From the NCBI RefSeq assembly GCF_964194025.1, contig NC_134470.1:37014001-37078000 (forward strand): a stretch of DNA of 64,000 nt, in the 5' to 3' direction. Shown here in pieces: positions 11,301-53,254 of the stretch. The stretch is from Convolutriloba macropyga (lineage: Eukaryota). A program made the translations under genes and the position numbers. Each line of letters opens with the position of its first letter. Within the stretch, counting starts at the first letter, position 1. Under the pieces are notes generated by a model. That model made no database searches, was not told where the DNA came from, and worked only from the letters and a program-made list of their open reading frames with translations.

Positions 11301-11832
11301 GAGAAAAGAAAATGAGAAAAGAAAGTGAGCAAAGATAGTGAGAAAAGAAAGTGAGAAAGAAAGTGAGAAAGTGAGAAAAGAAAGTGAGAAAAGAAAGTGA
11401 GAAACGAAATTAAGAAAAGAGAGTGACAAAAGAAAGTGAAAAAAGAAAGTGAGAAAAGAAAGTGAGAAAAGAAAGTGAGAAAAGAAATTGGGAAAAGAAA
11501 GTGAGAAAAGAAAGTGAGAAAAGAAAGTGAGAAAAGAAAGTGAGAAAAGAAAGTGAGAAAAGAAAGTGAGAAAAGAAAGTGAGAAAAGAAAGTGAGAAAA
11601 GAAAGTGAAAAAAGAAAGTGAGAAACGAAAGTGAGAAAAGAAAGTGAGAAACGAAAATGAGAAACGAAATTGAGAAAAAAAGTGAGAAAAGAAAGTGAGA
11701 AAAGAAAGTCAGAAAAGAAAGTGAGAAAAGAAAGTGAGAAAAGAAAGTGAGAAAAGAAAGTGAGAAAAGTAAGTGAGAAAAATAAGTGAGAAAAGAAAGT
11801 GAGAAACGTAAATGAGAAACGAAATTGAGAAA
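8319..11832. repeat. Purine-rich satellite, 13-bp unit GAGAAAAGAAAGT, with ~0.7-kb higher-order duplication
   Basis: Direct tandem repeats; diagnostic variants (gtggggaaagaaaatgaagag, tgcgaagacaaagtg) recur about 696 bp apart. Confidence 0.97.
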
Positions 11833-11838
11833 TGCAAC

Positions 11839-11929
11839 CGTTCAATAGCAACCATAATTTGTTGCTCAAAGTTTTGGATCTCAGCTTTAAAGCTTTGCTG
11901 CAGTCGTTTTATTGGTAAAGCAGTCATTT
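11839..11929 (-). CDS. Candidate further exon of the TBK1-like gene (ubiquitin-like domain region)
   Basis: tttcag acceptor; 91-nt open exon (K)MTALPIKRLQQSFKAEIQNFEQQIMVAIER; phase-compatible with the GTACGT donor at 17762; weak GTTGCA donor. Confidence 0.4.
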
Positions 11930-25498: not shown

Positions 25499-25504
25499 CC
25501 ACTG
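25499..25504 (+). repeat. Left target-site duplication CCACTG
   Basis: Identical hexamer at 53249-53254 immediately outside the other TIR. Confidence 0.95.
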
Positions 25505-25615
25505 AGAAGAATACATATGCCGATAGGGTGATATTAGGCACCCAATCAGCACATGCATTCTTCCTCGGTTTTCGGAACCTACCCGACAATGAAATTGTTC
25601 TAATTTTAGAAACAC
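25505..25615 (+). repeat. Left terminal inverted repeat
   Basis: Reverse complement of 53139-53248; 79 of the outer 83 nt identical, looser over the inner ~28 nt. Confidence 0.96.
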
Positions 25616-26676: not shown

Positions 26677-26883
26677 TCTAAATAACTTTTTGGAAATTTT
26701 TAGGTCTGCATGTTTGTTTATTTTACTGCTTCATTTGTTTTTTTTTCTATTTTTTCTTAGTCTGTCGGATCAACTCCATCCTCTTATCGCAAAAGAAAAA
26801 TTAAATCTAATTTTGATAGCTTGCACAAGTTTTGCAAGAAAAAAATCAACTTTTCAAAGAATTTATTTTCATTGTAGAAATAC

Positions 26884-27322
26884 TTAATTTTCAGCAGCAA
26901 ATTGTAGCAACTCTTCTTCAGTTAGATAAAAAGAAAAAGTTCGGGTCGGTAAATAGATACAGTGAGCAAAGTATAAACAGTACAATGCACACAGTTTACT
27001 TGTCGCTAGCTGTTTGAACAAGGGACGAATTTCGACATATTTAATGGATGTATTTTTTGTAGAGTTTCTGCAGTCTTTTAAAAATACTCGGGAAAACTTC
27101 GTGAAGATCTCGTTTGAAGCAGTCGTAGAAAAGTAGTTGTCCATTACTGTCTGCGATCAAAAGCCAGTGTTCCCAAAAAAAGCAAGATGGTTGATTGTTA
27201 ACAATAACAAATTTGTTTCGCTGAATGAAAGGGAAGTTCTCCGCAGAATAACAGACAAGGTAACGCAGGCTAAGCTCAGAGTGTTTACTGACAAAACGAT
27301 CAATGTCACTGTTGTCAACCAT
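26884..27322 (-). pseudogene. Adenain-like cysteine (capsid maturation) protease
   Basis: IVNN...EHWLL (His), FYDCF (Asp), and after a frameshift QLATSKLCALYCLYF (Gln, Cys); start overlaps the capsid stop. Confidence 0.9.
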
Positions 27323-28678
27323 TGTATATTGCTGAGTTTTTGATAACTTCTCTATTGCAATTAACCAAAGCAACAGATTGACGTTCAGCCATAAGTATGA
27401 CTCTAATGGGTTGCTTGGTTGGTGTTTTGAATTTGAATTCGATCCCCAACCGGGCACCAGTAAGTTCTGGGCGGATTGTGCTGTCCCGTAAGTTGGAATC
27501 GGCTGTAAGATTGAAAATCAACGCAAAATGATTGGCAAAGTTATCTAGAGTAATTCCGTTGCCGCCAACAGAATGACCCAAGGCCGTCATTGTTGTGTGG
27601 TAGAGACGGACGTGGCTTTTAGAGATATCAATGGGTGTGCCACCTACTTGCGATCCTTCTCGTGTGACCCTCACTGAACTCAAATTAAAGTCCTCGAAAT
27701 TGAAAGGATTAGATTTGTACGTTCCGGTGAAAGACTTCTCTGGTACCAAGACCACAACCAATTTGCAAGCTGGAGCTCTATTGAACAAATCATCCTGGTA
27801 ATAAACGCTGGTACCTGTAGTGATTCGAAAAGAAGTAATTGGAGACTCTTGCCACTCAAATTGAGCTGCTTTTTTCTTTAAAGCTCTCTCAAGTGAAATA
27901 ACGGTCTCCGTTCGAAGTTCCAACAAGTGTACAAATAGAAGCATTTAGGACCTTGATTGTGAAACTACTCGCATCTTGACAACCTCCGGGCTGATGCATA
28001 ATGAACTTGTCCAAAGAACGTGTCAGTCTGATCCGAACTTCAACTCCAGGTACCAAATACTTGTCAACACCGTTCAAAAAGTTGTTAGAAATTGTGGAAA
28101 AAGTGTGAAAGCTACGCCCTGAGTTATTTCATACCGTCTGGAAAAAGCATCGTTTTTCAAAGTGTTGAAATCCGAAAGAGCTGGTTCAAAACTATACCAT
28201 TGAGTTGCCATTATGCTCTGCTTGGTTGTCAGGTCGTAACTGAGGTCTGCCTCTAAGATGGACTTAAGGGGGTGCAAATTGCTGGACGAGGAAACCATGG
28301 TGCCATTCAAGAAAACTTCCACATTTTGCCACAAACTATTGGCGATGTTCTTCACGAAAATTGGTAGGAGCTCGCCGTCTGTACCATCACTTTTTTTCTT
28401 CCTAACAGCTGCTTCGCCTGATGATTCTTTAATCAACAATAATTCCATAATTCCATTTTGAGTAAAATGTTGTTTAGATCGGCTACAGTTCCACATATTT
28501 CCGTACGTGGCGCCTGAAATTCAAACTCCAACACTGGGCCATCTGAGTTTCTTGGCGGGAAAATTCGTTTGTCGTAAGCGCAGACAAAATCAGCCAAAAC
28601 TTGACTTGTACCAAAGAGGTCCAACATTGAGCTGGTTGCTGAAACTGGGGGATCGGCATAGGTGAAGGAATGAGACAT
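27315..28678 (-). pseudogene. Major capsid protein (double jelly-roll), frameshifted
   Basis: GPVLEFEF, NSLWQNVEVFLNG, KYLVPGVEVRIRLTRS, FTGTYKSNPFNFEDFNL, NGITLDNF...LIFNLTAD: motifs typical of animal Polinton major capsid proteins. Confidence 0.9.
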
Positions 28679-28691
28679 TGCAATCAATCAG

Positions 28692-29250
28692 TTAGGTAGC
28701 AGCGTCGACGATGGAGGAAAAGAAATCTTGCTTGTTATAGTTCTTCTTTTTTTTCGTTATACGCCTACGGTTTGTTCTCAAGACACGCTTTTTCCTTGTG
28801 GAACGGTTTCTGATCGTTTTTCGTGCGGAGCCTTTTGATTTTCTTCTCTGGTAGCGGAAGCGCTTTTTCTTTGATTTTGTCCTTCTTTTTGTATTGGTAA
28901 TCCGTTTAGGTGTCGATGACAGACGTCGCCCTTTTTCTGTTGAACTTTTTCTTCTCGAGCGACCACTTCCAATTTGTTTTTTTACCGTTTCGCGTAAAGT
29001 TTTTTTCAGGGCAGCTTTTGGTTTTGTACGTCCCTCTATTATCCCTAGCACTTCAGGAGCGGCATATTGTACCAAGTTTTTTGATAAGGGTAGACCGTAT
29101 CGCTTTGCAAGTGGTATCACAAAACTTTTCAAACCGAGACGCAGCGCAGAACCCAGCCCACTGCCGTATTGACGATTTGTTGAACCAGAATAAAAACTAG
29201 AATTTGCTCGGGGAAAAAAGTATGCGATTAGAATGGTAGTTGACGTCCAT
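28692..29250 (-). pseudogene. Basic core-like virion protein with Q-x-G-x-G motifs
   Basis: FYSGSTNRQYGSGLGS upstream of the annotated ORF, an amphipathic segment, QIGSG, then a long K/R-rich tail; located between integrase and capsid genes. Confidence 0.7.
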
Positions 29251-31293
29251 TCAAGAACTGTTTACAAAGAAAAGTTTCTGCCTTTCCCCCGCTGACGGTG
29301 AAGCAAGGCGTTGACAACTGAATCGCTTGACAATCAATATGAGTACTGAACCGCAGGTTGCCTATCAACCCGGTCACAAACGATTTCTTAAGCTGACCAA
29401 TTAACTAGGCCCTCAGCTGCAATGCCTACTTGCTGGCGGCCACGATGTCTATCTTCGTCAAACTTAAAAGCAACTAGTTCAGAAGCATAGAGACGTCCCA
29501 AAATTTCTTTGCCTGTGTTATCATGCAGTACATAGGTTATGGGTTCACTACGATTACGCGGAATGGACACTCTTGCAACAGTAAAGACTTCATCTGTAAA
29601 TCGCTGCTTATAACCTTTCTGGAAGGGTTTTCGCTGAAAAGACAAGCGAACAGTTTGTTTTTTCCTAAAGACTTTTTTCGCCAAAACAGTTTGGGTGGCG
29701 TACGATAACTCTTCATAACTGAATTTGGTCTTTTATCGTAAGCATTGGGACTGTTTTGCAGAACAAGACTCCTAACATGTTCCTTAGAGACGTCTGCGGG
29801 AGCTAAAAGATGCTTGAGTTGACTCGAGCGTTTATCAGCCTCACAAATTGTTGAAGATGACCCAAATAAGTACATGAACCACTTTCTTATAAAAATTTGT
29901 ATAAAAATTTTTCAACGTACGCACAAACCGCTCTGCAATAGCACTTTTCGAATCACCATAAGTGCTATAAACTTCAACTCCTAGCTCCTCACAGTGTTTT
30001 CTAAAGTATCCTTTGAATTCTTTCCCTTGATCTTTCCAAAGTTTTATGGGCACTGATGTTGGTTTGATTTTCTTCTCTGGTAGCGGAAGCGCTTTTTCTT
30101 TGATTTTGTCCTTCTTTTTGTATTGGTAATCCGTTTAGGTGTCGATGACAGACGTCGCCCTTTTTCTGTTGAACTTTTTCTTCTCGAGCGACCACTTCCA
30201 ATTTGTTTTTTACCGTTTCGCGTAAAGTTTTTTTCAGGGCAGCTTTTGGTTTTGTACGTCCCTCTATTATCCCTAGCACTTCAGGAGCGGCATATTGTAC
30301 CAAGTTTTTGGATAAGGGTAGACCGTATCGCTTTGCAAGTGGTATCACAAAACTTTTCAAACCGAGACGCAGCGCAGAACCCAGCCCACTGCCGTATTGA
30401 CGATTTGTTGAACCAGAATAAAAACTAGAATTTGCTCGGGGAAAAAAGTATGCGATTAGAATGGTAGTTGACGTCCATTCAAGAACTGTTTACAAAGAAA
30501 AGTTTCTGCCTTTCCCCCGCTGACGGTGAAGCAAGGCGTTGACAACTGAATCGCTTGACAATCAATATGAGTACTGAACCGCAGGTTGCCTATCAACCCG
30601 GTCACAAACGATTTCTTAAGCTGACCAATTAACTAGGCCCTCAGCTGCAATGCCTACTTGCTGGCGGCCACGATGTCTATCTTCGTCAAACTTAAAAGCA
30701 ACTAGTTCAGAAGCATAGAGACGTCCCAAAATTTCTTTGCCTGTGTTATCATGCAGTACATAGGTTATGGGTTCACTACGATTACGCGGAATGGACACTC
30801 TTGCAACAGTAAAGACTTCACCTGTAAATCGCTGCTTATAACCTTTCTGGAAGGGTTTTCGCTGAAAAGACAAGCGAACAGTTTGTTTTTTCCTAAAGAC
30901 TTTTTTCGCCAAAACAGTTTGGGTGGCGTACGATAACTCTTCATAACTGAATTTGGTCTTTTATCGTAAGCATTGGGACTGTTTTGCAGAACAAGACTCC
31001 TAACATGTTCCTTAGAGACGTCTGCGGGAGCTAAAAGATGCTTGAGTTGACTCGAGCGTTTATCAGCCTCACAAATTGTTGAAGATGACCCAAATAAGTA
31101 CATGAACCACTTTCTTAAAAAAATTTGTATAAAAATTTTTCAACGTACGCACAAACCGCTCTGCAATAGCACTTTTCGAATCACCATAAGTGCTATAAAC
31201 TTCAACTCCTAGCTCCTCACAGTGTTTTCTAAAGTATCCTTTGAATTCTTTCCCTTGATCTTTCCAAAGTTTTATGGGCACTGATGTTGGTTT
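28837..31293. repeat. Internal tandem duplication 1 (~1229 bp: 28837-30065 and 30066-31293)
   Basis: Near-identical copies; junction ggttt|gattttc with TTT microhomology. Confidence 0.95.
29388..30065 (-). pseudogene. Duplicated 3' part of the integrase
   Basis: Copy of 30616-31293 (WKDQGKEF, AERFVRTLK, FQKGYKQRFT). Confidence 0.9.
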
Positions 31294-31720
31294 TTCGATA
31301 TTAATCATCTTTGAAAAAGCTTCAAAAGCTGCCTGAACAGATTTTGATTTCATTGTGCGAACTCGTAGAAAACGTGTTAACACATCAACTGCAATAGAGA
31401 GATACTATACGCCGTCATTTTCCTTTGAAAATTTATTCATAAAAGCGACATCAACGGACCAAATATGAATCACTCCGAGACTTCTGATTTAAGTCTTTTG
31501 AACTTTTGTCTTGCAGCTTTAAACTTTGTATACACTTTACTACTCTCCAAAAACTCGCACTTTCGACAAGGGTAACCCGCTGGCTTTTCTCAAACTGGAA
31601 ATTCCACCATAAGCCGCAGGGTTGTTCAGCGATGTGTAGATTCCTTTCAAGTAACGATACTCAGCTTCTGAGAGTCTCCGCTATTTTACCGGCCTTTTCT
31701 GTCGTTTTAACAGCAACCAT
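30616..31720 (-). pseudogene. Retroviral-like (RVE, DDE) integrase
   Basis: PAAYGG, IWSVDVAFM, AVDVLTRF, WKDQGKEF, KSAIAERFVRTLK, FQKGYKQRFT.EVF, YVLHD.TGKEI.GR.YASEL. Confidence 0.93.
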
Positions 31721-32608: not shown

Positions 32609-33680
32609 TCAGCTGCAGTGCATGCAATGTTTAACATTTTGCTGATCAATTTTGCCACCACTCGTTAGTGTGATTGCACAATTTTCGTAAAGTTCACGGA
32701 TCGAACCATGTAATTCGTCATGTAGAAAAGAGCTGTTTTGATGGAGGGTAAAATTGTTCGAAGAGACTTGTGTAAAATCGAAAGAAATGGGTGCATTCCC
32801 CGCGACGAGGCACCGGCTGATTTGACTAGAGTCTAACGACAACTGGCACTGATCACCTGTTTCATTTTCAAAGGAACCACTGACTGCTCTCCTTTGCTTT
32901 GATTGCGTGTCAGATGATACTAAAATATCTTTTTTGCTACATACGGTAGTATTGCAGATGTAGATGCAAAATCTCAGACTATCGGGACATGTGGGTGTCA
33001 AGTCAATTAGGAAATGACCGAGTGGAAGTCTCATGCGATGCTTATAGCAGCTGTTGAAACACAGGCGTTGCAGTATCCAGCTCAAGAGCCTAAGATTTTC
33101 AATTACTTACCAACGCGTGGTGATTTTGTGAGAACGATATGCGTTGCGCTCTTATCAATGGTAACCGAATAAGGACCCTGTTGATAGAGATTGTGTTTAA
33201 TGAAAATTGAGGAGATGTTTTTATGCCTACCGGCTGTCGCCAATGTAGCGAAAACCTTGCTCTCCACAATTTCCTCACCGCAGTCATCAAAAATTAGCAG
33301 CTTTTTCTTTTGTGGGTAGCCTATGTTGCTGTGCTTCTCGGAAATAGCATGAAGCTCACTCAAAATAAGGTCGTCAACACAATATTCGTCGTTGCTAGCA
33401 CCGCTGCTGTTGTTAGTTGTTAAGGGTATTCATGATTGAATTTTTTGACTGAATGCAGCACTTGAATTCTACTGACACTTTTTCCCAAAATCTTCAAAAA
33501 ATCGTAATAAACAGGTCGCCAGTAGCGATAAATGTAAACAATGTGTTCAAAGGTGGTTCGAAAACTCCCTGTAGGACAGTAGGAGCTGATAGCATTGAAA
33601 GGATCAGCTGAGTTTTTCCAGTTCCGGAGCTTCCGCAAACACATAAAAACACGCTCTTTCGTTGATATTAACTTATTCAA
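32609..33680 (-). pseudogene. A32/FtsK-like DNA packaging ATPase
   Basis: Walker A GSSGTGKT (alternate frame near 33615-33635), Walker B LLIFDD, AGRHKNIS, KHNLYQQG, KSPR, GHFLIDLTP. Confidence 0.92.
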
Positions 33681-36129: not shown

Positions 36130-38078
36130 ATAGATAGCATCAGCTTCTAATTAACGTCAGTAGTATTGATATTGTCTTCATCATCTTCAGTGTCATCATA
36201 GTAACCATCAGGAACAACAGCTATTACAACAGCTTCTGCCGAGGAGGAAGTAACATTTGTCTTCCATCCCAGTAACTTGTTGTTGGGTATCATTGCTTGA
36301 TCCATCTCCCACGTGTTGGAACACATAGGCTACTCCCGCTGAGGAATTGTTGTTTTCTTCACTCTCTTCTCCAATTGTGTAATTGGAAAGATTTGAAAGA
36401 TCACCAGAGGAATAATGTCGAACGTTTAGAGTGTTATTGGCAGCTCTACCAAATTGACTTTGTTGAAAACGGTTTCACTGCTGCAACTAAGTAGCAGATG
36501 GTGCAGCAGTATATGTCACTGGTGATGGTTGCTGATTTTGCACTCGAAGCGAATGAGTCCGTTCGAGCGGCAGCCGCAAACGGTATCTGCTGTGTGGAAA
36601 GACATGGCCTAGCTGCAACGTGCGACTGATTATCTTCAATGTGCGTTGTTGTTTTGGTTGAAACAATGCTGATTGAAATCCAAAATTGCGTCCGATGCAC
36701 TATCATACTGTGGACAAAAGAACTGAGATGAATTCATTTGGCTGCTGTTTTGCTGTTGTTGTTGTTAAGCGAACCGATTATAAGCATTCTGGAGCTGGTT
36801 TTGAGGCAAAAATGTTGTTGCCGCTTGTCGATAATTGTAGACTTAATTGTAGTAGAAAAGCAGGCTGCCAATGGCTGGCTTCAAACCCCAAATACGATTC
36901 ATTTCTGCTACGGAGAAAGTAGCAATGCTCTTGAAGATTCCTACACGAGAAGCGTCTAACTGTATTGTCAGAAAGAGGTGCCTGCTGCTCACTGGAATTT
37001 GTGTTTCGCAACTCAAATTGCTGATACGCTTAAACACCTCAATATTGGGTTCAAAATGCTGCTGCAAAAGCGGGCTCTGATGTAAAGATACATTGAGGAC
37101 CGAATCTTTTGACCAATCGCGATCAAAGTATTGACTACAAATTGGTAGGAGAGCCATTGAATCTCTCTCTGAAAAGACCAAACCTTGTGTTATGAGCAAG
37201 GCTACCAACCAGTATAAAGTTGCGTGGAGCGCGTGAAAGTCGAGTCAAGAATAAATACTACTTGCCTGCCTTCAATCTTACATTTATGTATTAAACTGTA
37301 TTAAGAAAAGCCAAAGATGTCATAATCTAAATTGCTGTCCAAAAGCACAACACTATTTTACCAAAAATTTTACCTGCAGTTCAAACAGGCACTTGGAACA
37401 GAGAATTGGTGCTCTCTTTGGAAAATATTTGTTCAAGTCAGCATTTGCGTCATATGTAGAACCGAAGAAGTCGAATTGTTCCCCACGCGCAAGAGCACAA
37501 GGTTGTTTATTTTTTTATTGTCCAGCGAACGCAGCATAAACAGAGACGGGACACCACACTTGTATTTGAAAGAACTTGAAGCCTGATCTCATCTCTGACC
37601 TCGGTCGTTGAAAACTGAAATAGTGCTTTACGCGTACTACGGCTTCTTCAAGTTTCCAGTTTGTTGTCACCACTGGTTGGCCATTACTTGTAGATGATTG
37701 GGAGTCATCTCTACAGTATATCATCAAATGAAGATGGTTCTCGCAAAGCTCCGGTGCTTCCTTATTAGTGGACGACATAAGATTGCACCTTTGAGCTGAA
37801 TTTGGAACACGATGTTGATTCTGTGAAATTTTTCGTGTCACACACTCTGCATTTGGAAAACCGCATTGTTTTAGGCAGTTAAAGACATGGGCACCAATCA
37901 CAAACTCAATGTGCTCACGCTGTAGCATTACACAGAACTCCTCCAAAATGTGGTCACATTGCTCTATCGCTCATTTCTCACAATCATTGGTGGGGTGGAA
38001 CACAATATGCGCATAATTCCTGGTGGCACCTTGACGAAACTCCATACCGAAACTCTGAAAAATCAGTGCCCCCTGCAT
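36130..38078 (-). pseudogene. Large accessory gene with an N-terminal HUH-endonuclease-like domain
   Basis: In-frame read-through of the stops at 37971 and 37515 gives YAHIVFHP...FVIGAH...NHLHLMIY...VWCPVSVY; further fragments to ~36130; 3' limit uncertain. Confidence 0.45.
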
Positions 38079-38431: not shown

Positions 38432-39435
38432 TCAAACAAGTGTTTCAAGGTCTCCATAACTATACAATTGCTTACGAGAAAAAGTTGAATTTGTTGTTGT
38501 AGAAGTGTTATCATCAACACCTGATTTAGATCGCAACCCCTTTTTTCGGGTGCACACTTCCTCGACCAGGCTTCCAAAGTGAGAAGTAGAAGGGTTATTA
38601 TCTCTAAAATGACTTACATTTGCCGGCGTGTCTTTTGAAATTGTGAAAGAATTGTTTCTGTGAACGGAAATTGGTGTATAATAAATGTTTCGAGAGCTTG
38701 TTGGTAAAGAGTGTTTTCTTTCATACAAAACCGGATACTGCATATACTTGTTTGGTCTAATCAGTGGTAAAACTGCAGTCATGTTTTCCCTACTTGCATT
38801 GGAAACCAGGAGATCGGGAGGAACGGAGTGAACTTGCGCAGTAGTCTGGAGAGCTTGGATAGAATTTGAATCGTGTTGCCACCAAGAAGCCGCGGACATT
38901 TCGCCTTGCGTTGTAGCAGAGCAACCACTGCAATTCAACACAGATGAATTTTTGTCTTCTTGCAAGTGTGTTTGCCCGTCCACCGCAACCCCTTTCCCAA
39001 GAACATCGGTCGCCAGTCGGTTTTTCGATTTCCTTTCAACGGCTGACTGAATTTCCTGTTTTCGGGACCATCGGAAATGAGTAGCATCAATGATACAGCA
39101 CACAACGACAGACACCAAAATTATCGAAAGGATGAACAGGAACAATGAAACATTGTTCGCGCGCACAATAGAGCTGACAATAGTGTCATTAATTAGATCT
39201 AAGTCAGCTCTTAGTTGGCCCTTTGGCCCGCAACAAAAAACCCATCAACGCTCATGCAACAGCCCATATTCTTCATTTCACAGGAGTCGACCGCAATGTA
39301 GTGACAAGTCAATTTTTCCAGATAGCTGTTACTTGACCAGTCTGTTACCGTCTCTGAGCTCCAATGTTGAGTGCTGTCTGACTTAGTTTGAGACATAACG
39401 TTCAATAATCTGAAAACAAGACAAAGATTGTGCAT
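38432..39435 (-). pseudogene. Single-pass membrane protein (small Cys-rich ectodomain, TM helix, long S/T-rich tail)
   Basis: ORFs 39211-39444 and 38432-39166 share a frame across a stop; TM LFLFILSIILVSVVVCCII; sequons NDT and NVS before the TM. Confidence 0.55.
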
Positions 39436-39569: not shown

Positions 39570-42500
39570 GGATAAGAAACCATAAGGGACAGATAGCCAG
39601 TATCAGTATCGAAGCAGCGTTTAGTACAAGTTTAGTCATTTTGTTGCAAAACCGTGTTTGAATTTTACCAGTTTTAACGCAACGACGCATTGAGCTAAAT
39701 GGGGAGCGCAGCTCGTGCGCCTCCTGAAGAACCAGTTTTTTGAACGCTTCGATATCGAACGTGTTCTCCGCTGCTCTGTTAATAGTGAGACCTTTGAATT
39801 TAAAAACATTGTATTCAGCAGCTGTTTCATTATGGCGTCTATTTATACAGTAACATTTTGGCCCACCACTAAAAAAAAAATTATCAACCGTGACCGTTTT
39901 GTAAGCTCGTCCGTCATATCACCGAGACAGGAACCGATAGGTATATCCCTATGAGCATCCAAACCAATAACTTGCTCATCAATGTGCATTATACTGTCTG
40001 TATCACAGTATAAAACGTTGTGAGGATTTTTCACTTTCGAAATATGCTGATATAGTATGCTTCGGGCGTGGGAGGTTGTAAAGGCAGCCAAAACAACATT
40101 AGATTTTCTAGGAATACCAGCCGCATCGTTTGGTACTGAAGAAGCATCAAATCTTCTCCCACTAGAGTTGCGTCAATAACGCGAGAAAAATTAGATGTGA
40201 AGTATTTTACGACATCAGGGTAATTGTTGACATACCTCGTCTTTGGCAGGTTCTCACGCATACCAAGATAACCCCAAAAAGAATTGAGAATTTTTGAGAT
40301 GAAACATAAGCCTTCGTTCCGCTCCATATTCTCCTCATTCAGTTTAACCCCCTCTTTGAGTTCAAAGTCGCGCAGAAAGTCTTCTGTGGCTAAAAGTTTC
40401 AGTCTGATCATAGTTAGACTCTATTGGCCACCCACTCGCTTCTGTTTTTATCTTCCAAAAAATGTACTCCCGAAATAAGTTTGATGAGCGTCTTGCAGTG
40501 CTCCATGACCAAATTTCCGACACATCAATAACTCTGTAGCCCCAACGAATCCCTAATCGTAGTTCAACTGTCACAAATGTGCCCCAGAAAGCCCTATCAA
40601 GGTAATCACTGTGCGAGCATTTTGACCCATTGATTGAGATATTTGCCTGCTGGGATTTGTTAGAACTAGTGGTTTCGACGCAATTCCTGCAGAGCGGGAA
40701 AACAGTTTCGCATTATACTTGAAAGGGATAATTGGCAGCCAGAGATTCCTCGGCGGCAGAACAAGACATTTGATTAATCCAAAATATTCTTCATCCAAAA
40801 TTTTTTGTTCAACTTCCGAAGAGGGCTGACAATAAATGCAATCATTCGAACGTGATGCTAGCACTTTTCGTCGCTTAAGACTTAACGGATTTTCCCACAA
40901 ATTTTCATCAAAAACTGGAGCCACAAGCACAAAGTCAGGATGACCAACAGGATAAGGGCAAGACGCGTTAACATATGGGTGCCAGGAACAAATATCAGCA
41001 TACCGAAACTTTTGGTTACACTTCTTTTTGTGCCAACGTGTGCAGAAATTTTCTGTCCCACCGCCAACAAAAGCGTCTCTGGCTTTGAGTGGTGAAAAAA
41101 CTCGCTACTGCTTACCAGTTGTTTCAACTTTGACGTATAAAAGTAGCCGTTAGAAAAAGGAGCAATTTTTGCTGCTTCTTCAAAAGAATGATTGTTAACT
41201 AAATCATTAAATTGCCATTCCCAGATATTTTCAAATGACTCAATAACATAGTTTCAACCATCCGTCATTTTGGCGAAATTTGTTTTCAATTGGAGATTGG
41301 AGAAACTGAAATCTTTCTTGAAAAGTGAAACGAAGCTCTTCCATAGTCATTCCCAATTTCTTATTAAACTCTTTGCGATTTGGATAACATTTGTAGCAGC
41401 CGTGATAATAACAACCAAAAAACTCATAAATAACTGCTCTGTACACAACTTTAGAATCGCTGATCCAATCTTGTTCATCGGAGCGCTATTTTTTCAACAT
41501 GAGACCATCTACACGGAACAGGCCAATTTTTTGCTCTTGAAATTCTCTATCGTTTTTTGAAGCAGAACCACCCAAGGAGTTTGATTTGTAGAACTTGAAT
41601 TCAAAATTCTTGTTTTTTCTCTCCCGGTACGTTCGATCCAGCAGAGCCATTGATTAGCCGGGAACAAAGTTTTCTCCATCGACCGATATCCGTTTCCTTT
41701 TAAAATCACTATAGAGGCTGGAGGCATGAACAATTGTCGGTATATATAGTTACAGGCTGATGCAGCAGTACATGCTAATTGAAAGGGGTCAGTGTTGTTG
41801 CATGTTTTCTTAATCAGTCGTCGAAAAGTGGTAACGCCTTGTTTCAATAATTCAACGTCTGACTGGCAGTATTTTGTTAACTCGAGCTGAAAGTCGTAAA
41901 CTAGCAAGTTTTCCTTGTAAATTACCTATTGCTGTTGATGCCACTGAATGAAGTGATTAAATTCCTCAGTATCTTTTAGGGAATTAACGCCAAACAGACA
42001 ACGCGGCGGGAACTGTGCGGGTAGGAAGGCAAAATCTGGTTCTTGGCATTCTCTTGAATTCTCATGGCACTCTATTGGTAGCGTCCGTGCTGTGCAATTT
42101 GATCCTTGGAGTTTTGAAAGTCTGTCATCTTTCCTACTAATGCAGTGAGGGCAATCAGCGGAAACTATGTTCACTAAGCCGCATTCCTGTCCATTAGGGC
42201 GCGAAGAAATTGTATGAAAAGGTGTTTTACCTTCAAAAGCTGCAGATGAAGTAAGAAAATGGGGGAAATAACCCTTCTCCGTCTCTTCAATATTAAATGT
42301 CTTGGAAAATTTCCGAAGATGGATAGGTATGAACAGGCATGAATCAATTAACCGTTTATTTCGCACTTTGAGTGACAACTTTATTGCCTCTCAGAACAAT
42401 TTTTGGAATGAAACTTTGTTTCTGATATAGCCACTCCAAGATTGGCAGAAAGTCGTACCCACTTCCAAATTGAGCAAGATACCATTCGCACTTTCTGACA

Positions 42501-44220
42501 CGCTCTTTGTTGTCGAACAACCAAAGACAAAAATCGTTAACTGAATTGTAACCAACAAAAGATTCCTCAACTCCTGAAAATGATTTTGCAATCCGAAGAA
42601 CCGTTTTGTGTGCCATCTTTCGTTCGCAGCTCTGATCAGTTTCAATGTCAAAGACCCAAGTTTGTTCGTCTGGCACTGCTTGCTCGGCTTCTTCTTCCTA
42701 TCGCGAGAAGGAAGCGTCAGAACTGGACACTGAATTGAAGAGGTTACTCCTCTTTGATTTTTTGCAGGCAAAATTTCCCTTATCATCATCAACAGTCGTT
42801 CTTTCACCAACAACAGTCTCCAGGGCTGCACGTGCCCATTTTTTGGGGCTCTGTACAAAACACTTGTGTTTCTTTCCTTGTGAGAAATCGTAAAATTGAT
42901 AAGTTGCGCACCGTTTTTTGCTGCATTGATGAGTGGACGCCGAGTGCCGGGAAACAGTAAGATTGCACCCAGGACATTTGTAGAAGTAAGAGCAAATACG
43001 TTGTGTTATATGCGCAACCAAGCTCAGCTGACTCTTCAAAAGTAGTCCACAAGTTTGGCAACGATACGTAGAACACGTCTGTAGTCCAAAAAAATCAGTA
43101 TTGAAAGCAGTAGAAGCCCTGTTTCTGCAGTTTGGCATACGGCACTCTGTGCACGAACTGTGTGCACACAAGTGTTTAACAGTAGGGAATCCTTTATGAC
43201 AAGCATATCAGTAAAACAGAACGCTGAACAGGCCCTTCATTGAAGTGATTACATCAACGTGCTCTGCGTCTGAGTTGTACAACAAATCAATGTGCTTCTC
43301 CTGGCCGTCGTTGAAACTTTTCAAATAAACACCCATGAACTTTGCATCGTACACAGTTATGTTGTAGGGTATTAGACTTACAGTTTTTGCCGACATAGAC
43401 AGATCGTCAAGAGTCCATTTTTTATTCGAGCTGTTTTCGAAATCAATATCTGAATTTGAAAACCGTTTCAGTTTGAATATCAACTGTTTTTTTTTCAAAT
43501 CGTGCTTGTATTTTTTGAAAATTGTTTCCTTGCCTGTTGTAATCCATTATCTGCCAGAGCCATGCCTACGCCTAGTGCTGCTAATAAGCAATTATTTGAT
43601 TCATCTGTATGAATAGATATAACTGATCCCTTCTGTGATATGAAAGTTAGTACGTCGGGGATAGTTCGATTATCAATTCCGCCTATTTTATAGCCACCCA
43701 TTGCAGGTAAAGACACCGATAACACATTCACTTCCATATCGCTACTTATGTCGACCCCTTGTTTGAATTTAAAACACGATCTATTTCATTCAGCACAAGA
43801 ACTGGGTAACTCAGACTTGGACCATTTAGAACCAAGCGTATACGGTGATTAGTGTTTTCGTTTTCACGGTTTAATTCTTCAATGAGGAAATTTATCAATT
43901 GATTAAAAATGTCTTTGACTTTGTCAATTTGTGTTTCAATACCTCGGAAACTGACCTCGAAGTCGCGACTGACCGCTTGTAAGGAGCTCTTTCTTTTCGG
44001 TCTTCGTGTTACTTGATAAAAGGTTGAGTGATCAAAACCACTAACCAAGCTCACCTCTGGTGCATTTGCTACAGTAGCGTTGCTGCTGTTGCCATTAGTG
44101 TGTGTGTTTTCACTTGACAAGATCAGTGTCTGAAAAGAGGTATCAAATTTAGAACCTGATTCTTCAATTAATAGTTTAAGACGACGGTCTGTTTGTGTGG
44201 TTTATAGAGAGAACAATCAT
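39570..44220 (-). pseudogene. Protein-primed family B DNA polymerase (pPolB) with N-terminal OTU-like protease, Cys-rich region and Vsr-like insertion
   Basis: VFDIET, FGSGYDF, IDSCLFIP, EKGYFPH, KYCQSDV, YEFFGCYYHGC, KILNSFWGYLG, AAFTTSHAR, LYCDTDS, LGDMTDE, C-terminal PYGF; many frameshifts. Confidence 0.95.
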
Positions 44221-45535: not shown

Positions 45536-45916
45536 TTTGTGGTCTGAAAAACAGAGAACTGGCTGAATTGGTGATCTTGTGAGAACATTTGTTTTTTTTT
45601 AATTGAATTTGACACTCATTCATCATAATACTATTAAAGACAAGGTGGTTTTGAATAAACTTGCTTCTTGCAGTTGGTCGTTGAAATTAAAAATAAGGGA
45701 AAAAATTTGGTAGTAAAACAACTAAACATGACTGACTGTCTTAGCATAAGATGAAAAGTAATACACATAAGAAAGAAAAAGCGTACAATAAATTTTTAGA
45801 CATATCAAAATCCGCGCAAGAAAAATGAATTATGGTATGTTGAACATTTTGCTATGCTATGGTTTGGCAGCGAAGAATCAAGTCTACAAGAGTCACATTC
45901 GAGCATGTCAGCATTT

Positions 45917-46689
45917 TCATACAAGTTTCTTATACACTTTTGATCGCCTCTCGTCTTCAATGTTATTGAACAGATCGCTTTTTGCTTCGTACAAAAAACC
46001 AAGCATCCAAAAATAGCGCTTGATGTTATTTGTTTCCGGGGAACCTATGTTTATTTGGAGAAGTAGGCTCTTTAAATTAGCTATCATGAAGTCAAAAGCA
46101 GTATTCAATTTTTCTCGCGTTGCAACATATTTGAACTTCGCATAAAGATCATCACATTGACCCTCTGCGATAGCCTTGAGCATCATGTTGCACAGCAATA
46201 TTTGATTTGTTTGTTTACTGACAACTTTCTTCACTACGTCAATCCCGAACATTTGCGCTATCTGGGTTATTTGAACATTTCCACTACCCTAAACAGAACA
46301 CAATAAAATTATTGAGGCTCAGCAAATTATCGAAGTGATTTGTTTTTTGTATCTTTTAGGGTTCGATACTGCCCATCTCAATACAGTACAGTATATGTCA
46401 TCCTTCAAAACATGGGGTGTTTTTAAAGCTAAAAGCTTCTTATTACCTCGTCAGTAACGTCTTCATCGTCCAAGTCAACAACTTCAGTGGTAGAGCTCGC
46501 TTGTTGGGAGTTGTCGTCGACAGACTCTTCGATTTCAATCCGGTTGGAATTGCCTTCATCATCCTCTAGTGTAACATGAAAACCGTCCGGTTGCCTTGTC
46601 AAACGTGCCCGCTTCACAGCAAGATTAAGGCCGCGACTAAGGTCAATTGCTTCACAACTCACTGCTTCAGAAGAACTGACAGAAGTCAT
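45917..46689 (-). pseudogene. Three-exon accessory gene (acidic N-terminus with AIDLS and VVDLDDED motifs), copy 1
   Basis: Exons 46447-46689, 46331-46402 and 45917-46288 join in phase 0 through 44-nt (GT-AG) and 42-nt (AT-AG, donor apparently mutated) introns. Confidence 0.55.
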
Positions 46690-46949
46690 TGATACTTGTC
46701 TGAAAAACACAGTACTATAAGCTTGTTCAAGGTTTGAAAAAAGGACCAACAATAGCTGGAATGAGGTGACGAGTAAAAGCTGCAAAAAATGTTTTTTATT
46801 TAAAAAACAGTAGCAAACGAATACAAACGTATCGTATATAGGTTGATCAAGGAGAGGAGAATAATAATCAGGTAAGCAATCAATCAGTTGGATCAAAGCT
46901 GTGTGATATCATTCAGACGGTTTCATTTTTTCATATTGGAAGAATTGCT

Positions 46950-47585
46950 CTTCACTATTTGACTAGCTTTGAATTTGACTGGGGATCGCCAAATATCTGC
47001 ATCCTGTTCATTTCTAAATGAGACATCCTCTGTAACAGGGATAGCAAAGTCCTCGGAAAGTCGTCCCCAACTTGAGACTTGGTTTATATTTCACCTTCGT
47101 CGCCGATCGTTTCGCCATTTATTTTGTGTTCAACTTCCACAACTTTCGTCTTCATTTTCTTCCCTTCAACAAAGGCGCTATTGCATCTAATTGCTTCAAG
47201 GGATTGCCAGCTCAAAAGACTCCCGCAGTGCCAAATCTGTCAAGCTCAAGGTGTCACTGGATTTACTACCAATAATTTTTGTGACGTTGATCATTTCGTC
47301 CATTATGAGCTATAAACTCGATTGTCGTGTCCATTTATCAGTTATTGTATTGATTTTTGAATCAACCGTAGTTGTTAGTTTGAAGACCTTAATGTAAGCG
47401 TATACGCTCGTTTCAAATTTTCTGAGCCCGACTCTTACAAATCGGTTGTTTTTTGGATCCAGGTCCCACACGTTATCCGATTTTGATACCCCAAGATCTT
47501 CTTCAGGCGTTATTCCGGTGAAAGGCTGTGCATTTTGTCGCTCGAGGTCACTTTGTTCTTTTCGTTTTCTGATCCAGTGCGCCAT
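46950..47585 (-). pseudogene. PC4/Sub1-like ssDNA-binding protein, copy 1
   Basis: VWDLDPKNNRFVRVGLRKFETSVYAYIKVF...W...SL*LIMDE resembles the PC4 pattern; broken by stops. Confidence 0.4.
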
Positions 47586-47609
47586 TCTAAATTATTGCAA
47601 GCAATGAAA

Positions 47610-48329
47610 CTATGAACTAATTTTTTGAAAGAAAAGTGTTGCGTAGGTACGAACAGCTCCCGTGAAAGGTATCAGTTTCCCAGTATCACTTCGAATTTCA
47701 ATCAAAATATCTTGAATATAGGTTTTATTAACAAGCTTAGCTTGAGTTTTGTCAAAAGAGTGACGATATACAGCTGGATATCCGAAACGGCCTGCGATGG
47801 AGGACTCCACCTTTTCAGGACCGATTTGAGTTGCGTCAGATAAAGGGAAAGATCTCAATAAGGTTGCCTTGGTATTGCCAACAAACTGTGGCTCAATAAT
47901 GTCACGACAAACAAAAGCAAGATGATAAATTGATATCCGTTGGAAAAACTGGCTTATCTTCAAACTGGTTGGTTCCGGAGGAAAGTTTATTATGCGTCTC
48001 CAACGGAGATTTCTCTAATCCTAATATGTATCTGAGATCATCGGTAACATTTGTCAGATGAACACAGTCCTTTCCTTCGCATAGAACAACAAAGCCTTTG
48101 GACGTAAGTTCATTTTTCGGGAAAAACTGAAAACCTTTTTTACTTTATCGAAAATAGATTCTTGTCCTCTGGATGAATAGATTCCTTTTTCCATGTTATC
48201 AATCAATTCGAACACGCTATTGTACAAACATTTAGGAACGCGACAATTTGATAAGTAGATGCCAAGTTTTCCATTGATATAGTAAAATTTACCTTCAACG
48301 ATATTGAAGAACTTTTTTGGGCAAGTTAT
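47610..48329 (-). pseudogene. Minor capsid protein, 5'-truncated duplicate
   Basis: Copy of 50133-50852. Confidence 0.85.
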
Positions 48330-48437
48330 TGAAGAACTTTTTTGGGCACTCAATGGTATGTTGAACATTTTGCTATGCTATGGTTTGGCAGCGAAGAATC
48401 AAGTCTTCAAGAGTCACATTCGAGCATGTCAGCATTT

Positions 48438-49210
48438 TCATACAAGTTTCTTATACACTTTTGATCGCCTCTCGTCTTCAATGTCATTGAACAGATCGCT
48501 TTTTGCTTCGTACAAAAAACCAAGCATCCAAAAATAGCGCTTGATGTTATTTGTTTCCGGGGAACCTATGATTATTTGGAGAAGTAGGCTCTTTAAATTA
48601 GCTATCATGAAGTCAAAAGCAGTATTCAATTTTTCTCGCGTTGCAACATATTTGAACTTCGCATAAAGATCATCACATTGACCCTCTGCGATAGCCTTGA
48701 GCATCATGTTGCACAGCAATATTTGATTTGTTTGTTTACTGACAACTTTCTTCACTACGTCAATCCCGAACATTTGCGCTATCTGGGTTATTTGAACATT
48801 TCCACTACCCTAAACAGAACACAATAAAATTATTGAGGCTCAGCAAATTATCGAAGTGATTTGTTTTTTGTATCTTTTAGGGTTCGATACTGCCCATCTC
48901 AATACAGTACAGTATATGTCATCCTTCAAAACATGGGGTGTTTTTAAAGCTAAAAGCTTCTTATTACCTCGTCAGTAACGTCTTCATCGTCCAAGTCAAC
49001 AACTTCAGTGGTAGAGCTCGCTTGTTGGGAGTTGTCGTCGACAGACTCTTCGATTTCAATCCGGTTGGAATTGCCTTCATCATCCTCTAGTGTAACATGA
49101 AAACCGTCCGGTTGCCTTGTCAAACGTGCCCGCTTCACAGCAAGATTAAGGCCGCGACTAAGGTCAATTGCTTCGCAACTCACTGCTTCAGAAGAACTGA
49201 CAGAAGTCAT
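48438..49210 (-). pseudogene. Three-exon accessory gene, copy 2
   Basis: Duplicate of 45917-46689. Confidence 0.55.
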
Positions 49211-49469
49211 TGATACTTGTCTGAAAAACACAGTACTATAAGCTTGTTCGAGGTTTGAAAAAAGGACCAACAATAGCTGGAATGAGGTGACGAGTAAAAG
49301 CTGCAAAAAATGTTTTTTATTTAAAAAACAGTAGCAAACGAATACAAACGTATCGTATATAGGTTGATCAAGGAGAGGAGAATAATAATCAGGTAGGCAA
49401 TCAATCAGTTGGATCAAAGCTGTGTGATATCATTCAGACGGTTTAAAATTTTTTCATATTGGAAGAATT

Positions 49470-50108
49470 GCTCTTCACTATTTGACTAGCTTTGAATTTG
49501 ACTGGGGATCGCCAAATATCTGCATCCTGTTCATTTCAAAATGAGACATCCTCTGTAACAGGGATAGCAAAGTCCTCGGAAAGTCGTCCCCAACTTGAGA
49601 CTGGGTTTATATTTCACCTTCGTCGCCGATCGTTTCGCCATTTAATTTGTGTTCAACTTCCACAACTTTCGTCTTCATTTTCTTCCCTTCAACAAAGGCG
49701 CTATTGCATCTAATTGCTTCAAGGGATTGCCAGCTCAAAAGACTCCCGCAGTGCCAAATCTGTCAAGCTCAAGGTGTCACTGGATTTACTACCAATAATT
49801 TTTGTGACGTTGATCATTTCGTCCATTGTGAGCTATAAACTCGATTGTCGTGTCCATTTATCAGTTATTGTATTGATTTTTGAATCAACCGTAGTTGTTA
49901 GTTTGATGACCTTAATGTAAGCGTATACGCTCGTTTCAAATTTTCTGAGCCCGACTCTTACAAATCGGTTGTTTTTTGGATCCAGGTCCCACACGTTATC
50001 CGATTTTGATACCTCAAGATCTTCTTCAGGCGTTATTCCGGTGAAAGGCTGTGCATTTTGTCGCTCGAGGTCATTTTCTTCTTTTCGTTTTCTGATCCAG
50101 TGCGCCAT
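49470..50108 (-). pseudogene. PC4/Sub1-like protein, copy 2
   Basis: Duplicate of 46950-47585. Confidence 0.4.
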
Positions 50109-50132
50109 TCTAAATTATTGCAAGCAATGAAA

Positions 50133-51005
50133 CTATGAACTAATTTTTTGAAAGAAAAGTGTTGCGTAGGTACGAACAGCTCCCGTGAAAGGTATGAGTT
50201 TCCCAGTATCACTTCGAATTTCAATCAAAATATCTTGAATATAGGTTTTATTAACAAGCTTAGCTTGAGTTTTGTCAAAAGAGTGACGATATACAGCTGG
50301 ATATCCGAAACGGCCTGCGATGGAGGACTCCACCTTTTCAGGACCGATTTGAGTTGCGTCAGATAAAGGGAAAGATCTCAATAAGGTTGCCTTGGTATTG
50401 CCAACAAACTGTGGCTCAATAATGTCACGACAAACAAAAGCAAGATGATAAATTGATATCCGTTGGAAAAACTGGCTTATCTTCAAACTGATTGGTTCCG
50501 GAGGAAAGTTTATTATGCGTCTCCAACGGAGATTTCTCTAATCCTAATATGTATCTGAGATCATCGGTAACATTTGTCAGATGAACACAGTCCTTTCCTT
50601 CGCATAGAACAACAAAACCTTTGGACGTGAGTTCATTTCTCGGGAAAAACTGAAAACCTTTTTTACTTTATCGAAAATAGATTCTTGTCCTCTGGATGAA
50701 TAGATTCCTTTTTCCATGTTATCAATCAATTCGAACACGCTATTGTACAAACATTTAGGAACGCGACAATTTGATAAGTAGATGCCAAGTTTTCCATTGA
50801 TATAGTAAAATTTACCTTCAACGATATTGAAGAACTTTTTTGGGCAAGTTATGCTAGAGAGGGAAACGGTCCACTGATTATCGTTAAGTTCTAGAGGTGC
50901 ACTGAGTGATGTACGGAAGGACGCAAGTGTATTGTCGGGATAGCAATCAAGCGACGCAATGGATGATAAATCAATCGTAAAGAAACTGTTTTCTAATTTT
51001 GTCAT
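50133..51005 (-). pseudogene. Minor capsid (penton) protein
   Basis: FFTIDLSSIASLDCYPDNTLASFRTSLSAPLEL...WTVSLSSI and DIIEPQFVGNTKATLLRSF...IEIRSDTGKLIPF, typical N- and C-terminal motifs of Polinton minor capsid proteins. Confidence 0.88.
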
Positions 51006-51354: not shown

Positions 51355-52585
51355 AATTTTACAATTTGTAAAATTGGAGCAAGATATCCCTCCCACGTTA
51401 GAAATAATCCTCTTTTTTAAAATCTGTAAACAGGAGCAATAAATAGAATTTACAATTATTCCGAACGAGGAACATAGTTGAAATTTTACAATTTGTAAAA
51501 AGTGGAAGCTGAGTTTTTTTTACAATTTTTAAAAAAAAATAGAAGCTGAGTTTTTCACAATTTGTAAAAAGTAGAAGTTGAATTTTTACAATTTGTAGAA
51601 AGAGATGCCTAAAAATTTGACAATTTGTGAGAGGAACGTAGTTGAAATTTTACAATTTGTAAAAAGTAGAAGCTGAATTTTTTTTACAATTTGTAAAAAT
51701 TAGAAGCTTAATTTTTTACAATTTGTAAAAAGTAGAAGCTGAATTTTCTTACAATTTGTAAGAACTAAAAAATTACAGCAGCAAGACAAAAATAGGTAAA
51801 ACTTACTCGAATAAACAACAACGCTAGGACAAAATCAAAAATTTCAGTCGAGAAGGAGCAACCAAATGACGGTTAGCAACAGTGAGCAAAATGATTTACT
51901 TGGAGCGAGGCAAAGCTAACCTCAACTTGCTAGTCGATAAAACAACCAATCAGAAAAAGTCTGGAAAAATGATCCACAAAACAAAGCATTAAAGCATAGA
52001 GTTCTATCAGAAAAAGTATCAAAAACGAAAAAAGAGCAAAGAATGAATGAAAAGTAGAGAAAAAATTAACCAATCAGTTTTCTTCGCTAACTCAAATTAA
52101 AATTCGGAAACACAAAACGAATCAACAAAAAGGTTGTTTTCATAGTGAATCAAGTTTCTTACAATTTGTAAAAAAATTTTACATTTTGTAAAAATGAGTT
52201 GATCCGACAGACAGGTATCACGATAAAAAGATTAAGATTTTTACATTTTGTAAAATTTCTTTTACAAATTTTAAAAATTGTGCCTGTTTTAGTTTTTGAA
52301 AGAACTTTCGATTTTCCTTGAAACGATGAAAGTTTTACATTTTGTAAAAAAAATTGCAATAGGTACTGTTTGTTTTCAGAATTTAAAATAATTTTTTAGA
52401 ACTATAATTTTTTTACAATTTGTGAAAATAGTTTACAATTTACGTTTTGTAACATAAACTGATTGTTTTTTAGAATTTGCAATACTATTGAAGAAAAGCA
52501 GTTTTTACAATTTGTAAAAAAATTTACAATTTGTAAAAACAAATTTTATACATTTTGTAAAAATTATTTTACAAAATGTAATTTT
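51355..52585. repeat. Subterminal array of palindromes TTTTACAA-T-TTGTAAAA
   Basis: About 18 exact or variant copies in two clusters (51355-51762 with ~32-bp period; 52157-52585). Confidence 0.85.
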
Positions 52586-53138
52586 TTCTGCAAATATAAG
52601 AAACGCTGACTGTGTGCATGTATCAGTCAGTTGTTGCGTATAAACGCGTGATTGTGTGTGGGAGTGTGTGTGTGTGTGGGTGAGTGGGTAGTGTTGATGG
52701 AGGGGGGTACACATTTTTAGTAACTACTTTTTGATAACTTTTTTGATAATTTTTTAACACGCAGCCTTTTTCAAATACGTAGGTTGAATAAGTTGGGAAT
52801 ACATTTGACTATTTAGAATGAGTAAAATTGTTGAGGCAAAAATACTGTTTTTTGTACGTGAGGATAAAGCGTGTTGATATTAAGAGCTATGACAAATTAA
52901 TGTGCTTGCTCTAACAAACAGGAAGTTATTTTAGCAAACACACATACTCACGCACGCATACACTCATACACAACACAAGCAAACACACATACTCACGCAC
53001 ACATACACTCATACACAACACAAACACAAACGCGCACTCAAAAGGGAACAATACAGCAGCTGAAAAAAGTGGGGGGAATTATGACGCTGTATGTTTTGCT
53101 ATTGAAAAAATTGAAAAAGGAAAATGAATAAGCTTACT

Positions 53139-53248
53139 GTGTCATCTAAAAATAGAACATGATTAGTCGGGTAGGCTCCGAAAACCAAGGAAGAATGCAT
53201 GTGCTGATTGGGTGCCGAGTATCACCCTATCGGCATATGTATTCTTCT
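53139..53248 (-). repeat. Right terminal inverted repeat
   Basis: Reverse complement of 25505-25615; ends ...GTATTCTTCT. Confidence 0.96.
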
Positions 53249-53254
53249 CCACTG
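53249..53254 (+). repeat. Right target-site duplication CCACTG
   Basis: Matches 25499-25504. Confidence 0.95.

Follow-up and report, generated by a model that had tools for sequence, protein, structure and literature searches.

Within a 64,000-nucleotide stretch of the Convolutriloba macropyga genome (contig NC_134470.1, positions 37,014,001 to 37,078,000 of the forward strand; hereafter the window), a decayed 27.7-kb Polinton (25505-53248) carries, near its protein-primed family B polymerase (pPolB), a gene whose product is predicted to be a standalone protein with the HUH (Rep/NS1) nuclease fold. Such a standalone gene near pPolB is conserved in two Polinton families, here called A and B; judged from sequence conservation, its product keeps the metal-binding histidines and has apparently lost the catalytic tyrosine. 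We favour, tentatively, a protein that works like, and probably descends from, an HUH Rep and that may bind the hairpin ends of its element non-covalently. The gene and its parts lie as follows.

37353..38078, minus strand: HUH-fold gene, 241 codons plus stop; the window copy has two in-frame stops
37995..38009, minus strand: strand 1 with a motif-I-like stretch, codons 24-28; H-F-V-F-Y in the family
37887..37889, minus strand: His64, where strand 2 ends, a possible third metal ligand; 14 of 16 rows, aligned near the SPLH of the RepB family
37749..37886, minus strand: Cys-rich insert (C68, C72, C79, C98), putative Zn site; low pLDDT
37728..37739, minus strand: N-H-L-H (HUH motif II) on strand 3, from models and conservation
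37527..37553, minus strand: codons 176-184, the helix that follows the last core strand; Tyr181 varies and codon 183 (putative catalytic register) is never Tyr

A sequence-only reading of the window had given the gene the span 37373..38078, read through two in-frame stops; start and frame stand, as do both stops (TGA at 37973-37971, codon 36; TAA at 37517-37515, codon 188), but the frame runs on slightly, coding from 38078 to 37356, and in open copies it ends after 241 codons. The motif order proposed at the time (YAHIVFHP, FVIGAH, Cys-rich insert, HLH at 37736-37728, FKFFQIQV, PVSVYAAF) is borne out in this minus-strand frame. Searched at the DNA level, the own genome (G000) yields 24 matches: the window copy, 21 further loci with 91-94% nucleotide identity over nearly all of 771 bases, and two with 71-76%. 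The latter (L043, G000:C1298, 76%; L044, G000:C9, 71%) are old, strongly decayed copies resembling family A. Among 50 protein matches in the same genome, 14 of family A cover the protein stop-free; family B contributes 15 near-full-length matches (35-36% identity, 12 of them stop-free) and two further broken ones. Because the 21 other loci match so closely and 14 family-A matches are free of stops, the frame is a conserved gene and not a chance frame. In the window the gene has decayed to a pseudogene; compared with nine open copies, its ratio of nonsynonymous to synonymous substitutions is 0.41-0.48 for eight and 0.87 for the ninth. The open copies diverge little among themselves, which points to a young burst. 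No RNA holder of the gene was listed.

Our models suggest an HUH domain, as the motif order had led the earlier reading to expect. The two models, made from different family members, agree in topology (beta-alpha-beta-[insert]-beta-alpha-beta-alpha) and place HxH on strand 3 (DSSP assigns it to strands 115-121 and 102-108); they thus show the defining architecture of the superfamily, a ferredoxin-like core whose central strand bears HUH. In a structure search of 48,161 chains, HUH domains gave the longest alignments: 137 and 135 residues for AAV5 Rep, which is nearly the whole domain, 124-129 for B19 NS1 and 127 for RAYT, with non-HUH entries reaching at most 119 and 112. In the viral structure library BFVD, NS1 or Rep proteins made up 12 of 13 and 10 of 14 named matches for the two models.

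With no restriction on length, a search of 1.84 billion representatives returned 20 homologous proteins of 126-309 amino acids, to which profile searches added two (P0012 and P0065); the ten that we looked up are ENA/Logan records, and no fusion to another domain occurs among the homologues found by these searches (126-339 amino acids). Scans of IMG/VR and JGI metagenomes gave no locus with the gene, Pfam matched no family on the window protein and gave single weak unrelated matches on 18 members, PDB sequence searches gave zero and one weak match, and the ESM Atlas gave no usable match. The conservation alignment comprises 18 rows, 12 of them near full length (23-49% identity; one pair 83%), with some rows being decayed fragments. 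It retains the histidines and asparagine of an HUH site (H64 in 14/16 rows, N114 15/17, H115 16/17, H117 14/16), the strand-1 residues H24 (14/14) and Y28 (13/14), the insert cysteines (C68 14/17, C72 16/17, C79 16/16, C98 16/16), C176 (15/15) and K221 (14/15), and S179, G199 and F202 are invariant. H64 is a candidate third metal ligand, but it could instead be a ligand of the Zn site.

The tyrosines behave otherwise: HxH is conserved in the homologues as the earlier reading supposed, but the catalytic tyrosine that it placed in PVSVYAAF is not, so that half of the refuting outcome named by that reading has come about. Position 181 is Tyr in six of 15 rows (family A and five others), Phe in four, Trp in three, and Ile and Cys in one each; the young family B, with its many open copies, is among the seven rows with Phe or Trp. 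No column of the helix after the last core strand holds Tyr in more than six of 15 rows (178, six; 181, six; 183, 0/15; 187, 4/17), and Y28 is the sole near-invariant Tyr of the protein. The YFPK stretch was also considered as a YxxK motif and rejected, Y218 being Tyr in 4/15 rows. A conserved motif-III Tyr (YxxK or YxxxK), as an active HUH Rep/NS1 nickase requires, is therefore lacking, and by residue conservation the protein fails as an active tyrosine nickase.

Profile comparison suggests which register the catalytic residue would occupy. In hhalign comparisons with profiles that we built for IS200 and RAYT, HFVFYP pairs with HIVWTP and NHLHLL with DHVHLV (P 6e-4 and 1e-3); column shuffles reached the score in 0/60 cases, block shuffles in 4/60 and 1/60. 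IS200/IS605 TnpA and RAYT give the best profile-profile score, with a probability of 76% for the C-terminal half. The comparison with 14 Rep_2 initiators, for which plasmid records were used (PF01719 had no match in the 301 bacterial genomes searched), is not significant, 27/60 block shuffles reaching its score; the permissive alignment is nevertheless colinear, placing FVFYP with FLLYP, VIGAH beside ISPLH, NHLH with PHYH and SVYAAF with SVYLYL. In the Rep_2 proteins one column is Tyr in 14/14 and the column two residues before it in 7/14; family position 183 aligns with the former and position 181 with the latter, variable aromatic column. The part of PMC5030251 available to us gives Tyr99 as the nucleophile of RepB and His39, Asp42, His55 and His57 as its metal ligands, and the invariant Rep_2 Tyr column presumably corresponds to Tyr99. 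Given this permissive alignment, the two Rep_2 Tyr columns and RepB Tyr99, we infer that Y181 corresponds to the non-catalytic aromatic residue, 183 to the position of the catalytic Tyr and Y28 to the Tyr of motif I.

The host element is a Polinton, as first proposed: Pfam on a sister copy, followed by mapping onto the window element, identifies pPolB, an A32 ATPase and an rve integrase, all three in genes that are broken in the window, and the element has terminal inverted repeats (TIRs) and a 6-bp target-site duplication (TSD), CCACTG. Its features other than the HUH-fold gene are these.

25499..25504, no strand: left TSD, CCACTG
25505..25587, plus strand: left TIR, starting 5'-AGAAGAA; its first ~60 nucleotides form an imperfect hairpin (-15.7 kcal/mol, z -4.1)
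26765..27322, minus strand: putative cysteine protease remnant, which we take to be one from its position and a resemblance; no Pfam match
27979..28678, minus strand: N-terminal part of a broken gene, presumably for the major capsid protein, judging by position; 51% to a 447-amino-acid open reading frame (ORF) of family B; no Pfam match
29391..31720, minus strand: rve integrase, broken, with a 1.23-kb tandem duplication covering part of it; rve E 1.9e-9 on the sister copy
32633..33680, minus strand: A32-like packaging ATPase, broken; carries the sole in-gene Walker A
36150..37157, minus strand: downstream neighbour ORF, broken (342 amino acids in the sister copy); first 24 amino acids common to the family-B neighbour, E 9e-6
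38435..39435, minus strand: broken ORF of 339 amino acids that separates the HUH-fold gene from pPolB in family A only; no family match
39640..44120, minus strand: pPolB, broken; PF03175
46926..51005, minus strand: genes that we assume to encode a minor capsid protein and a PC4-like protein, in a 2.52-kb tandem repeat; the first without Pfam match
53166..53248, minus strand: right TIR with hairpin, z -3.2
53249..53254, no strand: right TSD, CCACTG

The HUH-fold gene begins ~75 bases past pPolB in family B, whereas in family A the 339-amino-acid ORF stands in between. Six-frame scans of four elements found no SF3 helicase Walker A, in agreement with the first reading; the sole in-gene Walker A is that of the ATPase, and one stray match in the window is flanked by stops. 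The fused SF3 helicase of parvoviral and CRESS Reps is thus missing.

Both window TIRs (about 84 nucleotides) fold into imperfect hairpins, and the hairpin TIRs noticed at the outset recur in related elements: with 150 approximate dinucleotide shuffles on the TIRs of gene-bearing elements, z is -4.1 and -3.2 in the window, -3.4 in the sister copy and -7.0 in family B. Perfect 6-bp TSDs flank four of the five elements with both ends found; in one further copy the right end was not found. The fifth, a family-B copy (L069-L072, G000:C8:64327917-64349972), has both TIRs but lacks the 6-bp TSD, and it carries 1 kb of inserted sequence compared with another copy. The 6-bp TSD is described as a Maverick signature in the accessible portion of PMC8097293, and such TSDs suggest that the integrase, rather than a nickase, made the insertion; an HUH enzyme of the Y1, Helitron or Replitron type would insert without TIRs and a 6-bp TSD. 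In contigs of four runs the left element end has varied flanks, and no end-to-end or strand-changing joint is listed there in the four contig sets, a weak test since contigs drop rare forms. The nicking-based excision or replication that the first reading had envisaged finds no support. Near-palindrome TTTTACAATTTGTAAAA arrays at 51465-52590, 0.7-1.8 kb inside the right end and also in sister copies, include one 85-nucleotide stretch that folds at z -8.4; they are a second candidate binding site or origin.

In the end-binding model, a rolling-circle Rep would have left its helicase behind and lost its nucleophile while keeping the metal site. The protein would bind a divalent metal at H64/H115/H117, hold Zn in the Cys insert and recognize folded or melted single-stranded TIR DNA; it could keep the origin open at the ends so that pPolB can start by terminal-protein priming, or alternatively pass the ends on to the integrase or the packaging ATPase. 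The retained histidines weigh against so inert a role, and they are the chief argument for an active nuclease in which His24, Tyr28 or a metal-activated water replaces the helix tyrosine and nicks the TIR hairpins. We regard such an enzyme as unlikely, and give the same low credence to the broader proposal that a tyrosine-free HUH nuclease of Polintons, with a His, relocated Tyr or water nucleophile, cuts its own terminal hairpins to free or resolve the ends for protein-primed replication. The full His/Asn set together with K221, S179 and C176 is kept across 23-49% identity, TIR hairpins occur in both families, Tyr28 should by strand alternation share the open sheet face with His24, and the HUH relaxase MobM reportedly uses a histidine nucleophile. 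However, Tyr28 aligns with the motif-I Tyr of the Rep_2 proteins (FLLYP) and not with their nucleophile, the insertion sites are of integrase type, and the contig sets, weak as that test is, list no strand-changing joint.

Three further explanations fare less well. That HxH is coincidental in a ferredoxin-like metalloprotein of other function seems decidedly unlikely: generic folds align over only about 100 core residues, but the match to parvoviral Reps extends to the C-terminal helix-strand-helices; the viral structure library returns mostly Reps, and the motifs pair up in the alignments with the IS200 and RAYT profiles, at the shuffle frequencies given above. We are more doubtful still of an HUH-derived transcription regulator acting at internal promoters rather than at the termini; family B has a TATA-binding protein (TBP) homologue two genes past the HUH-fold gene (L067:1393-2019, Pfam E 2.3e-8), but no TBP match was found in family A among the ORFs scanned with Pfam, and the conserved metal histidines would be left unexplained. 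A canonical nickase whose helix Tyr drives rolling-hairpin excision or replication is highly improbable and, on conservation, already largely refuted: motif order, fold, a Rep-like placement of the helix behind the last core strand, and Tyr181 in six rows speak for it, but Phe or Trp replaces that Tyr in seven rows including family B, no Lys follows at +3 or +4, there is no helicase, and the TSDs are of 6 bp.

Among the closest known systems is the parvovirus Rep/NS1 nuclease domain (AAV5 Rep 1M55, the AAV2 origin-binding domain, B19 NS1 7SZY), from which the HUH-fold protein differs in lacking the motif-III Tyr/Lys and the SF3 helicase, in its 10-13% identity and in having a Cys insert of ~45 residues that separates strands 2 and 3. 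A search of the own genome (G000) found neither Rep_N nor NS1 helicase of an endogenous parvovirus; the controls were silent, so this is no proof of absence. The pMV158/pE194 Rep_2 initiators (RepB origin-binding domain) are likewise standalone and helicase-free, with an F-x-x-Y-P motif I, a His ending strand 2, HUH and an aromatic residue two positions before the catalytic one, but their catalytic Tyr column is invariant where ours is never Tyr, and the profile match is not significant. IS200/IS605 TnpA and RAYT, Y1 proteins that bind hairpins, share the H-u-u-aromatic-x-P strand 1 and the [DN]-H-u-H-u-u motif; in contrast, our family has no Y1 helix Tyr, and its host element has TIRs, TSDs and an integrase. 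The proposed end binder would parallel the origin-binding domains of polyoma- and papillomaviruses (large T, E1), which have lost the histidines and are helicase-fused, whereas the HUH-fold protein is standalone, keeps its histidines and adjoins pPolB. Inactivated HUH domains as origin binders have a precedent in papovaviruses, according to the available text of PMC13595969.

HUH genes also occur in mid-size jelly-roll dsDNA virus groups, some with rve integrase. In the sections at hand, mriyaviruses are described with all catalytic HUH motifs and no DNA polymerase (PMC11253617), whereas the window Polinton has pPolB and a protein without the Tyr; some rve-bearing Mriya-like Polinton-like viruses (Zora/VC218) carry HUH genes (10.64898/2026.06.19.733378), Gulliviroviridae have circovirus-Rep-like nickases (10.64898/2026.10.13.758929), and a captured NS1 is mentioned for fowl adenovirus (PMC11071296). 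Our element resembles animal Mavericks/Polintons (adintoviruses; PMC8097293) in pPolB, rve, ATPase, TIRs starting AG and the 6-bp TSD, but HUH is absent from the eight vertebrate core genes. The main text and Fig S2 labels of PMC8502044, as available in part, name no HUH protein or nickase, and the portions seen of PMC11296320 and PMC5714925 give general background. We found no report of an HUH gene in a pPolB/integrase animal Polinton in the literature, mostly open texts; a label in Buck et al. or a Repbase annotation is possible.

For the question of how Polintons leave the chromosome and begin replication at their ends, a conserved HUH-fold protein beside pPolB, encoded by elements whose TIRs form hairpins, is a concrete candidate for end recognition. 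If inert, it would add one more case in which a rolling-circle Rep was independently turned into an origin binder, and it would mirror the bidnavirus swap, with a Rep gene taken into a Polinton instead of pPolB into a parvovirus. If active, it would be a new catalytic variant of the HUH superfamily whose chemistry dispenses with the canonical tyrosine, and the missing enzyme by which Polinton ends are freed or resolved.

Some observations concern the elements more generally. The window Polinton has two internal tandem duplications (45832-50900, period ~2.52 kb; 28834-31300, ~1.23 kb) that are 99-100% identical and absent from the sister copies seen; they are either recent duplications or an assembly artefact. 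The gene after the putative minor capsid gene (46926-47585 and 49446-50108) is common to families A and B (38%) and presumably resembles PC4-type single-stranded-DNA binders. Two equal-scoring family-B genes 5.6 kb apart (G000:C10:9096322 and 9101920) stem from tandem duplication inside a copy whose pPolB is truncated. Outside the Polinton, 8260-11900 is a 3.6-kb low-complexity tract with GC and AT skew of 0.7-0.9, open in all three minus frames.
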